From IMG/VR virus record IMGVR_UViG_3300045988_119994: a stretch of 35,664 nt of DNA. One strand, 5' to 3'. The position numbers were made by a program, and so were the translations under genes. Each line of letters opens with the position of its first letter. Position 1 is the stretch's first letter. Source of the stretch: a virus. Lineage: Duplodnaviria > Heunggongvirae > Uroviricota > Caudoviricetes. Below the pieces are notes generated by a model. That model did not search any database. It had not been told where the DNA came from and saw only the letters and a list, made by a program, of their open reading frames with translations. Positions 1 to 17,300 of this stretch are shown here, one piece after another.

Positions 1-77
1 ACTTCGAACGTCTGATGGAAGGCGCTAAACTGCTGAAATGTTCAGAGTTTGGTGATGCGATCATCAAGAACATGTAA
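1..77 (+). CDS. icd: isocitrate dehydrogenase, 3' end (partial; 5' part outside window)
   Basis: Frame-3 translation FERLMEGAKLLKCSEFGDAIIKNM* matches the conserved Icd C-terminus as recalled; stop TAA at 75-77; terminator follows. Confidence 0.8.
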   Translation, partial: FERLMEGAKLLKCSEFGDAIIKNM

Positions 78-100
78 TTACTACATGTGTTAAATATTGT

Positions 101-130
101 AACGGGCGTATAACACGCCCGTTGTTTTAT
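101..130 (+). terminator. rho-independent terminator downstream of icd
   Basis: 8-bp stem AACGGGCG / CGCCCGTT (101-108 / 116-123), 7-nt loop, then T-rich GTTTTAT. Confidence 0.6.
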
Positions 131-200
131 GTTAGTACGCTAACGGTTATCAAAATTTTATCAAAATTAGTTATCAAAACCCTTCTGGAAGATTCATGTT

Positions 201-815
201 ATGGACTGCATTTCAAAACAAAAATTCACAATTATTTTAATAGTGGTGTTAATTGCCTTGGGCTGTGCTGCTTATTTTGGAGATGGTGAAGGATATTTTA
301 TAGGTAGCTTTGTGCCTGAATTTACTGGAGTGTGCCTTGAGCTTCTTATTATTTTAAAGGTTTTTGAGGTCTGGCAGCAAAGAGATGAGAAAAGGAAGCT
401 TATTAAGGTTGAAAGACGATTAAGGGAGTTTCTTATTTTCTTTCTGAACCATACGTGCATGGATTTTCCTCCATCCTGCCGTCCAGGGCGTTTTTATGGA
501 ATTGACTATGAGCAAAATCAAAAAGCATTAGAAAAATTAATCAATCATATTGAAGAAAAAGGATTAGCTGAAAATCTTGTTATTCAAGTTCAAATGTATT
601 GTAAGAGTGAATGTCAAATTATAAATAATTTAATCCCAGTTTCTTCTGAGCTTGAAAATGATCACTTTAAATCATGGGTTCGGATTGCCTATTATATGAA
701 TGCCGTTGCTAATGGGCAAGAAAAGGCTAGTGTTGCAATGATTAAAATACTTGAAAATATAAAAAGATTTGATAAGGAATCTCATGATAAAAAACTTTAT
801 GTTGGTGCAAATTAG
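201..815 (+). CDS. hypothetical membrane protein (two N-terminal TM helices plus ~150-aa soluble domain); AT-rich cargo of decayed element
   Basis: 204-aa ORF with ATG at 201; hydrophobic segments at about residues 9-26 and 33-55; visibly AT-rich; no recognisable catalytic motif. Confidence 0.55.
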   Translation: MDCISKQKFTIILIVVLIALGCAAYFGDGEGYFIGSFVPEFTGVCLELLIILKVFEVWQQRDEKRKLIKVERRLREFLIFFLNHTCMDFPPSCRPGRFYGIDYEQNQKALEKLINHIEEKGLAENLVIQVQMYCKSECQIINNLIPVSSELENDHFKSWVRIAYYMNAVANGQEKASVAMIKILENIKRFDKESHDKKLYVGAN

Positions 816-821
816 ATAACA

Positions 822-1083
822 ATAGCTCAGTCTTTCCCTTGGTCATCATAGTGGTGAGCAGTTTGCTACTGGGTCTTATGGCCCAGTAGTTTTCTGGTAT
901 CAACCCCTTGTTCCTTGTAAAGACGCTCAGATAAAGAATTTTGTTCATGAAAAGTTGCTAGAGTTCATGTGCCCTGGTCATTTCCTGCCAAATCCCTCGC
1001 TTTAATGAAATTCACCGTCAACGAATTGGATTTAACCTGTGCACCACGCTCTGTCTGTGAAGTTAAACGGAAAAAATCATGTG
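822..1083 (-). pseudogene. integrase 3' fragment (remnant of an earlier e14-like element)
   Basis: Nucleotide similarity to the 3' ~260 bp of the intact integrase gene (2788-3050) with indels and frame disruptions; no intact ORF; similarity stops near 1083. Confidence 0.7.
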
Positions 1084-1113
1084 TCTAAAACGGATCTATT
1101 TACAGATTGCACT

Positions 1114-1254
1114 AAAGCCGTAGACCTGATTGTTAAAGGTATGGAAGGCGCAATCAACTCCAAGAGCGTAATCTATGACTTCTAACGCTAGATTGAGGTT
1201 ACTAATCTGCTGAAATGTTGAGAGTTTAGTAAATCAATCACAGAAAACATGTAA
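1114..1254 (+). pseudogene. degenerate duplicate of the icd 3' end (icdC-like displaced copy), part of att repeat copy 2
   Basis: Translates as ...[43 protein letters not shown], i.e. Icd C-terminus interrupted by in-frame stops at 1183, 1189 and 1222. Confidence 0.7.
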
Positions 1255-1335
1255 TTCACATTCTGGAATATGTGAGAACGGTAGTCTAGCGGTTCCAGTT
1301 TTTATTATTAGATTTTGAACGGTTATCAAAACAGG
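1114..1335. repeat. att-like direct repeat copy 2 (pseudo-icd 3' end plus AACGGTTATCAAAAC arm at 1318-1332)
   Basis: Same order of elements as copy 1 (icd-like tail, hairpin, GGTTATCAAAA arm), diverged. Confidence 0.55.
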
Positions 1336-1336
1336 T

Positions 1337-1801
1337 TCACTTTGATTCAATTTTGAAACTTTTTTTAACCACTAAAATCATGCAGCTAATCACTTCTGCA
1401 ATGAGGTTAAGAGATAGCACGATAGCAAAAAGTTCTAAAGCAGTAAATAGCTTGCCTTTAGAAGGGATAAATTCGTGCTGAGGATAATTTACTAGTGGTA
1501 TGTCATAATTACGTAAATAGGGAAGGAAGATTGTTACTGCCAGACACATGACCAGTAATTTCAAATCTAATTCTAAACTATCTAAATAGTCCGTAAAGTC
1601 TGTGCTTTTCTCGCCCTTATTAATGACAGCCAAAATTCCGAAGATAACGGAGATACCTGCGGCAATACCTCCAAGTATTGAACCTATTACTCCAGCAGAA
1701 GCCTGCTCAAGTAAGGTATAAATGGTTTTATCAGTCGATGCTAATGCTAAGCACAAAAAGAAGGTAGCTATAGCTTTAATCCAGACAGTTAGATTTTGCA
1801 T
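1337..1801 (-). CDS. small four-TM membrane protein (second gene of cargo operon; candidate effector)
   Basis: 154-aa ORF; four hydrophobic helices (about residues 7-22, 37-60, 81-96, 118-145); start overlaps the upstream gene by 26 nt; AT-rich. Confidence 0.7.
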   Translation of the reverse strand: MQNLTVWIKAIATFFLCLALASTDKTIYTLLEQASAGVIGSILGGIAAGISVIFGILAVINKGEKSTDFTDYLDSLELDLKLLVMCLAVTIFLPYLRNYDIPLVNYPQHEFIPSKGKLFTALELFAIVLSLNLIAEVISCMILVVKKSFKIESK

Positions 1802-2672
1802 TTTTGAACGTATACCTGTTTTGATGTAATGCTATGATCTCTTTAATATCATTTGCTGAGTAGCCATCAAGTTCAATTTCTGATATCTCACCTTCGATCA
1901 GCACGATTTTGGCTGTCTGATTACTGGATACCGTAGTAGATTTTGACTTGAGTGTCTTACGTCCTTTAATCAACCATGACCCGCCACCATCTTTGACCCA
2001 GTCAACAAGAGTCTCAGCCCAATGAGAACCTTTGAGTTTCAAATTGCCATCTTTGTTTTCAAAAATAGTGGTCACAGTATTTGCATTGGTATCTTTTTCA
2101 AGCTTCCGTAAATCATTGGTTAACGCTTGCTTACTGCTTCCGAAGATATTCGGAGTAATCAGCGTAAAGCTGACTTTGTCGATAAATTGAAGCCTATGGT
2201 ATTCTGACCAAAAATCTTCCATTTCAAGACAAGGCTCTATAAATATTCTAAGTCCTAACTGAGCCAAATAGTCGTTATTGGCTAGATCTTCAAACGCTTT
2301 AGCAACTTGTTGCGCATCCTTGAAAACAGCGGTTTTCCTCTCAACCAGTAACACCTGCTCTACTTTGTCCCAAATCCATACGATAGGTGGATAGTTGTCT
2401 ACATCGTACTCTCGAAAGTCTTTATCATGTCCTTTAATCTTTTGCAGCTTTGATATGACTCCAGCCATAACACCATCAGTAGGTTTTATGCTCAATTTCA
2501 GGGTGTAACTAGTTTTCTTATGAACGGAAGGTGTTGATGACGTCATGTGTAAATTTTTTGCAGCGATAACCATAGCATTTTCAAAATGAGAGATATCTTT
2601 CTGAACAGTTCCTTTCGAAAAGAGGTCTGGATCGCGCGGTCTCATTAACACACGTAAGGCATACAACTGCAT
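1776..2672 (-). CDS. hypothetical 298-aa soluble protein (first gene of cargo operon; candidate sensor)
   Basis: ATG at 2672 with AGGAG 7 nt upstream; AT-rich; no HExxH, no GS..DxD nucleotidyltransferase motif and no obvious Walker A; possible D-x8-E-R-K nuclease-like motif is speculative. Confidence 0.7.
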   Translation of the reverse strand: MQLYALRVLMRPRDPDLFSKGTVQKDISHFENAMVIAAKNLHMTSSTPSVHKKTSYTLKLSIKPTDGVMAGVISKLQKIKGHDKDFREYDVDNYPPIVWIWDKVEQVLLVERKTAVFKDAQQVAKAFEDLANNDYLAQLGLRIFIEPCLEMEDFWSEYHRLQFIDKVSFTLITPNIFGSSKQALTNDLRKLEKDTNANTVTTIFENKDGNLKLKGSHWAETLVDWVKDGGGSWLIKGRKTLKSKSTTVSSNQTAKIVLIEGEISEIELDGYSANDIKEIIALHQNRYTFKNAKSNCLD

Positions 2673-2701
2673 AAGAAAACTCCTGTAAACTATTTGGTTT
2701 C

Positions 2702-2776
2702 ATTATTCCATAAAACCAAGCACTTTCAAGAGCTTAATTTTCTTTCAATTCTGTATGCATATACAGTATCATTCAA
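2702..2776 (-). promoter_or_regulatory. candidate sigma70 promoters for the cargo operon (TTGAAT-N17-CAGAAT overlapping the LexA box; TTGAAA-N16-AATAAT downstream)
   Basis: Minus-strand hexamers: -35 at 2771-2776 with -10 at 2748-2753; second pair -35 at 2724-2729 with -10 at 2702-2707. Confidence 0.35.
2751..2766. promoter_or_regulatory. LexA (SOS) box CTGTATGCATATACAG upstream of the cargo operon
   Basis: Exact CTGT-N8-ACAG palindrome with AT-rich centre (6/8 match to ATATATAT); 12 bp downstream of intE stop, 79 bp upstream of the operon start; no other such match found in the intergenic regions checked. Confidence 0.5.
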
Positions 2777-2787
2777 TTTTGTAAAAT

Positions 2788-14094: not shown

Positions 14095-14111
14095 TTTTGT
14101 GGAGAAATTTG

Positions 14112-14477
14112 ATGCGTGATATTCAGATCATCCTTGAACGTTGGGGGGCATGGGCAGCTAGTGATAGCTCAGGAGTGGACTATTCGCCTATAGCTGCTGG
14201 GTTTAAGGGACTTCTTCCCTATACCAGTAAGGCACGCCAAGCTTGTTCAGATAATGATGCGCTAATTATTGAAAGTTGCTTGGAGCAACTAAAAAAAAGA
14301 AAACCTTATGAGCATTCTCTACTGGTTGCGCATTATTTGTACGGGTTTTCAAAGCGGAAGATTGCCAAAGTACAAGGAAAGGATGAGAAATTAATCCGTA
14401 TAGAAATATTGTTAGCAGAGGGATTCATTGATGGTTGCCTTTCTACTCTCGATATTCATTTAGATATGGAGTTATAA
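14112..14477 (+). CDS. late-gene antiterminator Q (QuuD-like)
   Basis: MRDIQIILERWGAWAA... N-terminus matches QuuD-type antiterminators as recalled; GGAGA SD. Confidence 0.8.
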   Translation: MRDIQIILERWGAWAASDSSGVDYSPIAAGFKGLLPYTSKARQACSDNDALIIESCLEQLKKRKPYEHSLLVAHYLYGFSKRKIAKVQGKDEKLIRIEILLAEGFIDGCLSTLDIHLDMEL

Positions 14478-14487
14478 TAAAAAATAA

Positions 14488-14512
14488 CCCCGTAAACTTT
14501 ATGTTTACGGGG
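14488..14512. terminator. bidirectional terminator between convergent Q and TIR genes
   Basis: Perfect 10-bp stem CCCCGTAAAC / GTTTACGGGG, 5-nt loop, A-tract upstream and T-tract downstream. Confidence 0.6.
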
Positions 14513-14517
14513 GAAGG

Positions 14518-15333
14518 TTATTTCTTTTTTTTATTACTTTCAGATAATCGTTGGTTTAATGTGTATTTTATTTGGTTCCTAATCATTTTTTCAGGAATGT
14601 CATATTTGTCTAAGAATGATATTATTTCATCCTCGTCAAGCAATCCATTCTTTATAATTTCATCTATCTGTTTTTGTAGATACCAAACATCCTTCTGTTC
14701 TACAGGAGTTAAATTCATATGGCTATTTATGGAGTTGATAGTAGCATCACGTTCAAGAACTCTAATCCTTTGATTTAATGAACGAGTGTTTTGTAATATT
14801 TCAGATAAAAGATCTTGTTCAGTACGTGGTTTTACTTCTTCAGTTGGAGGGTATTGATCTAAAGCTCGTTTAAAATTGTTTTCAAATTGCTCCCAGTATG
14901 TATTAAAAACTTGCTTTAGAATACGGTCATCTAAAGATTTATCGACAAGACAATTGTTTATTGTCCTTACTAATTCCCAAACACTCTCTTTATTTGGCGT
15001 TGTGTGATTGAATTGAGCAAGTGGATCTTTTAAATCTTCTGGTTTTAAGTCAATCAAGAATGTACAAACTTTATTTGTTGAAAGTCCTTTTGCTAGTGCT
15101 CCTGTTTCAAACAAAATCCATGGTTTATTTTTATTTTCTTGTGTCAAACATACAATTCCGACAGATACATCTTTTAATTTATCATTAATTTCAGAGAACC
15201 ATATAGCGCCACGATCAATATCTCTGGTTGAAATCCATGGCTGCGAAGCTTGGATAACACACTTCAGCCAGTCGCTAATAAGTTCTGCAACAGCTTGACT
15301 TCTTTGCCCAGACCAACTTATGAACACTTTCAT
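14518..15333 (-). CDS. TIR-domain protein (N-terminal TIR-like domain plus ~170-aa helical C-terminal domain); AT-rich moron
   Basis: From ATG at 15333 (GGAG SD 6 nt upstream): MKVFISWSGQRS... then PWILFETGA with Trp-x3-Glu; markedly AT-rich; opposite strand to late operon. Confidence 0.8.
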   Translation of the reverse strand: MKVFISWSGQRSQAVAELISDWLKCVIQASQPWISTRDIDRGAIWFSEINDKLKDVSVGIVCLTQENKNKPWILFETGALAKGLSTNKVCTFLIDLKPEDLKDPLAQFNHTTPNKESVWELVRTINNCLVDKSLDDRILKQVFNTYWEQFENNFKRALDQYPPTEEVKPRTEQDLLSEILQNTRSLNQRIRVLERDATINSINSHMNLTPVEQKDVWYLQKQIDEIIKNGLLDEDEIISFLDKYDIPEKMIRNQIKYTLNQRLSESNKKKK

Positions 15334-15457
15334 TATGTACTCCATGTAATCACTCAAAAGGAACTGAAATTTACATTAAAAATTAAATAAAATCACTCAC
15401 GCGGTCCGCAGAAACCATTGTAATCTGTTATGAGTGGTTACTTCGCCACACAACTTA

Positions 15458-15486
15458 AACCCGCCGTCGAGCGGGTTTTGTCGTTT
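15458..15486 (+). terminator. tR'-like terminator in the late promoter region
   Basis: Stem ACCCGC / GCGGGT (15459-15464 / 15471-15476), loop CGTCGA, then TTTGTCGTTTC. Confidence 0.4.
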
Positions 15487-15630
15487 CTGGTCCTAGGGAT
15501 TAATTGCTTCTGCCCTATCCCGCAGTTATCCATTGGCTCGGCTTCTTTTACGTTTCCGCTTCTGATTTGCGGTTCGTGGTACACCCTCAATTTGCACCTC
15601 CTTTATCGGCGAGGTGAGAGATAACTACAA

Positions 15631-15957
15631 ATGCCTCATAACCCAAATACCTGGCTGGAGTTGTTCCAGAGCTGGTGGCGTGGAGACACACCACTGGGCG
15701 CAGTAATTATGTCGATCGTTATGGCTGGCTTGCGCATTGCCTATTTTGGCGGTGGTGGTGGCTGGAAGCGAAAAACGCTCGAGATTTTTCTCTGTGGCGC
15801 TCTGACACTGACTTTTGCATCCGCTCTTGAGTATGTCGGATGGCCTAAATCTCTTTCTGTTGCCATTGGTGGCGGCGTTGGGCTGATCGGGGTCGATGCT
15901 ATTCGTGGTGCGGCAATGAGAGTAATCGGTAACAAGTTTGGTAGCTCGAAGGAGTAA
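15631..15957 (+). CDS. holin (lambda S-like class I)
   Basis: 108 aa; hydrophobic segments and A-LR--Y-GG pattern similar to lambda S; GAGGTGAGAG SD; directly upstream of endolysin. Confidence 0.8.
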   Translation: MPHNPNTWLELFQSWWRGDTPLGAVIMSIVMAGLRIAYFGGGGGWKRKTLEIFLCGALTLTFASALEYVGWPKSLSVAIGGGVGLIGVDAIRGAAMRVIGNKFGSSKE

Positions 15958-16955: not shown

Positions 16956-16995
16956 CCATTACAAAGCTCATCTGCGGGTGGGCTTTGTAATGGCT
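16954..16995. other. perfect 14-bp inverted repeat (AGCCATTACAAAGC / GCTTTGTAATGGCT) at the convergence of Rz1 and a minus-strand ORF
   Basis: Read directly; 14-nt loop; no clear U-tract. Confidence 0.5.
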
Positions 16996-17300
16996 TATTC
17001 GTAGTTGTCACCAGGGAAGTATTCCTGAAACTTTGATTTTGGGAGCTGGGTTTTCGCGAAGTTCGCAAGCCTTCCTCTTGTAAGCATGTAGTCACACCCA
17101 CCTTCTTGTTTGAGAAGGTCACTAGCTAATGTCCGATACACAACGTCACTTCGCAAAATTTCAATGGTGGAATTCCTGATGAGAAATGTTTCACACATCG
17201 GGCATCTAATTAACCAAGCGGTATCACGGTTCTGCCAGGTCGCATCTGAATTGCAAGCCGGGCAGCATTTCTGATCTTCTTGTCCTATGACCATTGTCAT
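16995..17300 (-). CDS. hypothetical Cys-rich (zinc-ribbon-like) protein encoded antisense to the late operon
   Basis: 101-aa ORF with CCPACN...CPMCETF motifs; weak SD, so coding status uncertain. Confidence 0.4.
   Translation of the reverse strand: MTMVIGQEDQKCCPACNSDATWQNRDTAWLIRCPMCETFLIRNSTIEILRSDVVYRTLASDLLKQEGGCDYMLTRGRLANFAKTQLPKSKFQEYFPGDNYE

Follow-up and report, generated by a model that had tools for sequence, protein, structure and literature searches.

Can a single TIR-domain gene carried by a prophage serve as a complete immune system? This question is raised by a 35,664-nucleotide stretch of viral DNA (IMG/VR record IMGVR_UViG_3300045988_119994, Caudoviricetes; "the window" below means this whole stretch), a lambda-like Escherichia coli prophage with a single intact TIR gene lying antisense between the gene for antiterminator Q and the lysis genes. 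The gene (14518..15333, minus strand; 271 codons plus stop) encodes a protein of 271 residues that begins with MKVFISWSGQRS and contains PWILFETGA, with W72 and E76, just as an initial annotation of the window had read it, and RefSeq carries an identical coding sequence (WP_000862379.1) labelled 'TIR domain-containing protein'. The protein consists of a predicted NAD-cleaving-type TIR domain, a conserved helical extension and a hypervariable tail, and this stand-alone architecture of a conserved chassis with a hypervariable tail is so far uncharacterised.

Identical DNA is present in 25 of 5,426 complete E. coli genomes, at the same position in both records that were inspected. At 90% identity the homologues fall into 2,084 clusters; at 50% identity there are 11,260, 3,365 of them with E ≤ 1e-30. 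Nearly all family members are 250-300 residues long. Given these cluster numbers and the purifying selection described below, the open reading frame is not a chance one.

A predicted NAD-cleaving TIR domain

Pfam analysis placed a TIR_2 domain (PF13676) on residues 3-97 with 31.1 bits, against a cut-off of 28. A first AlphaFold run on 52 close homologues left the TIR core at a predicted local distance difference test (pLDDT) score of 36-55 and was set aside; the model used here was built from 145 diverse sequences and has a pLDDT of 92.3. It comprises a five-strand TIR fold at residues 1-130 (strands bA-bE and helices aA-aE; 14944..15333, minus strand), behind which lie long helices at 136-160 and 172-205 and then a three-helix bundle (213-270). 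In structure comparisons the TIR part, a five-strand flavodoxin-like fold, superposes on solved TIR domains, and the top matches are all NADase TIRs, namely SPARTA, SARM1, SpbK and AbTir. The outcome is a confident TIR fold carrying the catalytic Glu, and not the non-TIR flavodoxin-like fold that the initial annotation had named as the alternative.

The putative catalytic Glu belongs to a WxxxE motif, W72-I-L-F-E76 (15106..15120, minus strand), in helix aC. W72 and E76 lie within model helix 71-82 and are invariant in the 145 sequences, at identities down to 36%. A full-length profile returned nothing meaningful from PDB sequences; with a profile of the TIR part only, plant TIRs (RPP1 type and Roq1) and AbTir were the sole matches (E=2.5e-4 to 0.03), and W72/E76 aligned with DWTNYE of AbTir and SWCLDE of the RPP1-type TIR NADases. 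The earlier reading that a Glu stands four residues past the Trp as in NADase TIRs is thereby supported by alignment to the catalytic residues of AbTir and RPP1. AbTir and the plant TIR NADases (RPP1, Roq1) share this aligned Trp and Glu but differ otherwise: identity is below 20%, the coiled coil of AbTir is N-terminal to its TIR, and the plant proteins have a nucleotide-binding leucine-rich repeat architecture. Judged by its sequence and model, the protein is predicted to be a TIR of the NAD-cleaving type. No NCBIfam model matches it, and its PHROGs family (phrog_13899, E=3e-100) has no assigned function.

A conserved helical extension and a hypervariable tail

Behind the TIR domain, the initial annotation had described a helical domain of about 170 residues. 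Its helical nature stands, but the region amounts to about 140 residues and consists of two different modules. The first, defined by the model and by conservation, is a helical extension at residues 131-205 (14719..14943, minus strand; helices 136-160 and 172-205), in which L134, L139, F143, Y146, W147, F150, R170, L176, E178, I179, L180, R184 and E194 are conserved and in which a heptad register (L176/I179/T183/L186/I190/L193) can be read from the sequence. The second, defined by the model and by a drop in identity, is a hypervariable three-helix tail at residues 206-271 (14521..14718, minus strand), with helices modelled at 213-228, 234-244 and 248-270 and a pLDDT of 86-94.

Mean pairwise identity among the 52 homologues is 87% at residues 1-125, 67-71% at residues 126-194 and 24% at residues 195-271. 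The tail ranges from 12 to 46% identity in amino acids and from 31 to 59% in nucleotides. In the TIR part, nucleotide identity (∼79%) is lower than amino-acid identity (∼90%), which indicates purifying selection and not recent transfer. In a structure search of BFVD, the matches were confined to TIR-like and deoxyribosyltransferase-like proteins that superposed poorly, and no fold was assigned to residues 131-271. From its sequence alone the tail gives the impression of a UBA-like three-helix bundle, which we do not put forward as an assignment.

The extension bears on the choice of substrate, as R170, R184, R189 and R191 are conserved on a long helix and plant TIRs rank high among the sequence matches. 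The TIR could therefore be imagined to act on a substrate other than NAD+, with the Arg-bearing helix 170-194 as its guide; like some plant TIRs, it would then cleave nucleic acid and have 2',3'-cyclic nucleotide monophosphate synthetase activity. We consider this very improbable, since positive charges do not prevail in the Arg-bearing region, searches detected no fold that binds nucleic acid and the close structural matches are all NADases.

Relationship to known TIR defence systems

PADLOC assigned the protein to PDLC03016, named 'TIR-TM' (E=1.7e-57, 193.6 bits, profile positions 1-248 of 293). The same model represents gp02 of the P2_AC1 system, with a score of 393 bits, while gp03 and gp04 are represented as '1TM-TIR' and '2TM-TIR'. 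The membrane segment implied by the name 'TIR-TM' was looked for and rejected, as neither the 270 family members, which have no transmembrane (TM) or hydrophobic segment even at the N-terminus, nor AC1 gp02 contains one. We take the P2_AC1 system to be the one that DefenseFinder calls Rst_2TM_1TM_TIR. This three-gene system protects against lambda, LF82_P8 and P2-like phages (Rousset et al. 2022, PMC9122126). The window protein and gp02 are 38% identical over residues 1-179 (E=1e-33), both have an N-terminal TIR and the first helical extension, and both are cargo of prophage hotspots. They differ in that gp02 has 315 residues and an unrelated C-terminal half, and is encoded downstream of two membrane-protein genes. 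Homologues of gp03 and gp04 were found by tblastn (E ≤ 1) neither in the window nor in 41 loci, except in AC1 itself. By its PDLC03016 match the gene thus qualifies as the TIR component of P2_AC1, but it does not constitute the P2_AC1 system because the gp03/gp04 partners are absent. AC1-type TIRs in two IMG/VR contigs (L045 and L046, 4001-4960; 74% and 60% identical to the P2_AC1 TIR) are likewise without these partners, which raises the question of whether AC1 itself needs them. In one survey, the complete three-gene system was undetected in the bacterial genome set.

The TIR fold with its catalytic Glu is also shared with ThsB of Thoeris, and ThsB structures are among the matches, but the sequence scores are below threshold (PF08937 at E=0.062 with no accepted stretch; PADLOC ThsB at E=0.018). 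No ThsA effector, whether of the SIR2-SLOG or the Macro-TM type, is adjacent or appears as a conserved neighbour in 37 related loci. This agrees with the initial annotation, which had noted the absence of a ThsA-like partner, and extends it: no ThsA-like, SLATT or TM partner is present in the window, nor does any recur as a conserved feature of the more than 40 related loci.

A precedent for defence by one TIR protein is SpbK, a 266-residue single-gene system on ICEBs1 of Bacillus subtilis (PMC11984713), whose non-TIR domain binds the portal protein of the phage; this brings the TIRs together in active assemblies of two strands and turns NADase activity on (PMC11984713; PMC12847820). The window protein shares only the TIR fold with SpbK, as there is no PADLOC spbK match, no PDB sequence match to SpbK at E ≤ 10 and hence no detectable sequence similarity. 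The order of parts is also the opposite one, since SpbK has its sensor at the N-terminus and its TIR at the C-terminus, and SpbK has no counterpart of the 131-205 extension. For the TIR effectors of CBASS and Pycsar there is only a marginal SAVED_TIR match on the TIR part (E=0.0086); the model contains no SAVED, STING or cyclic-nucleotide-binding sensor fold, and no cyclase lies nearby, the neighbours being Q and holin. As far as sequence and neighbours can tell, the gene is not a member of Thoeris, CBASS/Pycsar or the SpbK family. The initial description of a single-gene TIR system with an uncharacterised C-terminal part therefore holds for the TIR and the missing partner, and can be refined to a member of the PADLOC 'TIR-TM' family with an extension and a variable tail.

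Distribution of the family

Related loci (numbered with the prefix L) place the family in several kinds of mobile setting. In 14 loci the TIR gene is tail-to-tail with Q, with DUF968 alongside in 13 of them; these Q-adjacent loci include phage mEp390 and prophage contigs in which identity of the TIR protein drops to 59-72%. A tyrosine integrase is tail-to-tail with the TIR homologue in six loci from Pseudomonas and relatives (L009, L011, L013, L031, L034 and L037), ∼50-60 nt past the TIR stop codon, as expected of cargo at the edge of an element. On chromosome 2 of Vibrio cholerae CP053803 (L052, 4828-6087 and 7103-7912), a 67%-identical homologue forms a single-gene superintegron cassette between V. 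cholerae repeats (VCRs), with a second, identical copy at a distance of 2.1 kb. Across 37 related loci, no same-strand neighbour of the TIR gene is conserved.

The same survey speaks to two further explanations. The gene is phage-borne and holds a conserved position beside Q, as might a counter-defence or addiction module that serves the phage by consuming or mimicking immune nucleotides or by killing cells that lose the prophage. This seems improbable to us: integrons and genomic islands, outside phages, carry the gene just as often, its orientation opposes the lytic transcription units, and no antitoxin-like neighbour is conserved. Even less credible is a Tcp-like virulence factor that, like TcpC and BtpA, would disturb Toll-like receptor signalling in an animal host. 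The protein does occur in E. coli of human and animal origin, but homologues of more than 55% identity are found in marine and free-living bacteria, among them Pseudoalteromonas, Marinobacter, Nitrospira and metagenome-assembled genomes of Planctomycetota and Verrucomicrobiota; moreover, no member has a hydrophobic segment, the N-terminus included, and the gene occupies phage, integron and integrase cargo positions.

Two observations were made on individual loci. In Marinobacter sp. F3R08 (L005), many attC-like repeats (TAACAAGG...GCGTTA) stand between the small same-strand genes that surround the TIR homologue, a pattern that suggests a chromosomal integron array. In the marine genomes of Bermanella and Marinomonas (L006, 3893-7761, and L007, 4580-7946), the homologue is co-stranded with ThsB_TIR, a SLATT 2TM effector and further TIR_2 genes, which could form a multi-TIR system with a membrane effector.

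A proposed single-protein sensor and effector

In the reading with the best support, to which we give about even weight, the gene is a moron expressed in the lysogen, encoding an autonomous one-protein sensor-effector that acts as a TIR NADase in abortive infection. By analogy with SpbK, the variable tail, alone or with the extension, would bind a protein of the infecting phage, and a multimeric trigger would cluster the TIR domains into the head-to-tail assemblies required for TIR NADase activity. NAD+ would then be cleaved to ADP-ribose (ADPR) and/or a cyclic ADPR isomer, and the resulting collapse of NAD+ would cost the infected cell, aborting the infection before progeny are released. The position of the gene, convergent with Q and upstream of the late promoter, would permit expression in the lysogen, while early transcription through Q could dampen it when the prophage itself is induced. 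A role in defence is suggested by the kinship with the P2_AC1 TIR, the PDLC03016 match and the other antisense cargo of the Q-holin slot. Autonomy is suggested by the solo cassettes, the place beside integrases in Pseudomonas, the lack of a conserved partner and of a TM segment, and the AC1-type relatives without TM genes; the idea of a sensor draws on the contrast between 87% identity in the TIR part and 24% in the tail of the same proteins, and on the purifying selection that acts on the TIR.

Several points weigh against this reading. Upstream of the TIR gene, no minus-strand site in the consensus scan was convincing as a promoter, and the variability of the tail could stem from weak constraint instead of an arms race. 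The Trp of the WxxxE motif has been tied, in work on AbTir and ThsB, to the production of cyclic ADPR isomers, and its invariance here would be compatible with a signalling role as well as with NAD depletion. In two of about 16 genomic loci, the TIR gene lies amid ThsB_TIR and SLATT 2TM genes. Finally, the sole validated relative, the AC1 TIR, was cloned jointly with two membrane proteins, and the proposal of Rousset et al. is that it signals to them (PMC9122126).

As the main alternative, the protein might be pictured as a ThsB-like signal generator, which on sensing a phage would make a cyclic ADPR-type messenger for a separate, host-encoded effector of the membrane or SLATT kind and would have little effect alone. 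Such a role is favoured by the three-gene operon of the closest validated relative, whose TIR is proposed to signal to its 1TM and 2TM proteins, by the co-stranded ThsB_TIR and SLATT 2TM genes of L006 and L007, and by the invariant Trp. We nevertheless regard it as unlikely, since there is no partner in the 35.6-kb window and none conserved in 37 loci, and since AC1-type relatives exist without TM genes. The gene also travels across phyla as a one-gene integron cassette and as solo prophage cargo, where an unlinked receptor would be unreliable.

The autonomous sensor-effector would not be a new kind of system, because single-gene TIR defences and the validated relative of the family are already known. 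No study of the stand-alone family was found in the literature under its accession, TIR-TM, 2TM-1TM-TIR, lambdoid hotspots or integron cassettes. With somewhat less than even confidence, we suggest that the protein is the type example of an unrecognised and very abundant single-protein bacterial immune sensor, in which an almost invariant TIR-helix chassis bears an interchangeable, fast-evolving recognition tail of 65 residues and which serves as minimal cargo in at least six phyla. Defence finders would then miss the stand-alone family because their definition of it is confined to a three-gene system that is very rare, and the three-gene definition in PADLOC and DefenseFinder would conceal thousands of stand-alone members. 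Should the protein prove able to act by itself, sensor and effector of an entire immune system would fit into a 0.9-kb gene, and the natural tail variants in the same prophage slot would offer a ready specificity panel for phage recognition by TIR proteins.

The Q-holin slot

The slot is bordered on the left by the antiterminator Q gene (14109..14477, plus strand; PF06530 Phage_antitermQ, E=9.6e-49; RefSeq 'antiterminator Q family protein'), which is convergent with the TIR gene, and on the right by a lambda-family holin gene, the first of the lysis cassette (15631..15957, plus strand; identified by RefSeq and by matches to the SfII, SfIV and SfV holins). Within it, the TIR gene stands out by a GC content of 0.29-0.35 (about 31% overall) against 0.50-0.58 in both flanks, confirming the strong AT-richness noted at the outset, and it has, as was also noted, a Shine-Dalgarno sequence of its own, GGAG, read 6 nt before the ATG (15340..15343, minus strand).

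Related prophages carry different genes in this slot, likewise antisense (L042 4007-5338, L043 4180-5175, L048 3505-4524, L051 3449-4663 and L056 842-2456). This cargo includes a KAP NTPase matching the PADLOC candidate PDC-S20 with 588 bits, an SDH-family Clp-fold serine protease and several hypothetical proteins, two of them in phage SfII (SfII_49/50). Such varied antisense cargo between Q and holin marks the slot as a defence-type hotspot, and the presence of the PDC-S20 KAP NTPase in particular accords with the initial view of the Q-to-lysis junction as a hotspot for morons. If the TIR gene is indeed a stand-alone defence, the junction between Q and the late promoter in SfV/SfII/e14-like prophages would be a hotspot of antisense defence genes that merits mining.

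Between the convergent Q and TIR genes lies a hairpin (14488..14512) with a perfect 10-bp stem, six of whose pairs are G-C, and a 5-nt loop. Compensatory changes that keep the stem paired in eight related prophages support it as a real hairpin. The terminator scan called it on the minus, or TIR, strand only, with the tail TTATTTTTTA, so that it probably terminates the TIR gene and possibly also Q. For mEp390, the deposited annotation gives a terminator in each direction at the equivalent place. The initial annotation had proposed a perfect 10-bp bidirectional terminator shared by both genes: the stem and its position between the two stop codons stand, but the scan supports the TIR strand only, and bidirectionality is plausible but only partly supported because the T-run on the Q (plus) side begins ∼10 nt beyond the stem.

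At the other end of the TIR gene, a divergent control region (15344..15478) is expected to hold the TIR promoter on the minus strand and the late promoter with its leader on the plus strand. The region is conserved among eight prophages and ends, on the plus strand, in a tR'-like terminator called by the terminator scan (15457-15478). DNA similarity to the region upstream of the holin in SfII and SfIV begins at about 15372-15389. From the terminator and the start of this similarity together, the late promoter with its leader should lie upstream of the start codon of the TIR gene, and thus the TIR gene between Q and the late promoter, in keeping with the location first assigned to it. A consensus scan found a weak promoter-like site at 15364-15393, in a scan whose overall count of sites did not exceed that for shuffled sequence.

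Other features of the window

A 64-residue open reading frame (15430-15624, plus strand) runs across both the conserved late leader and its tR'-like terminator, and is probably non-coding because RefSeq left it unannotated in the identical prophage. Rfam and tRNA searches of the window gave no match. Window positions 1-2787 are AT-rich (31-41% GC) and contain three hypothetical open reading frames beside the integrase (201-815, plus strand; 1337-1801 and 1776-2672, minus strand), for which there was no Pfam or PADLOC match; RefSeq records show icd and intE here, which places the prophage at the e14 site. A 101-residue open reading frame with a CxxC...CxxC pattern (16995-17300, minus strand), itself without a Pfam or PADLOC match, lies antisense between the spanin genes and an HNH endonuclease gene. 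An iss gene is found at the equivalent position in the related prophage L002, and 16995-17300 may therefore be a second moron slot.
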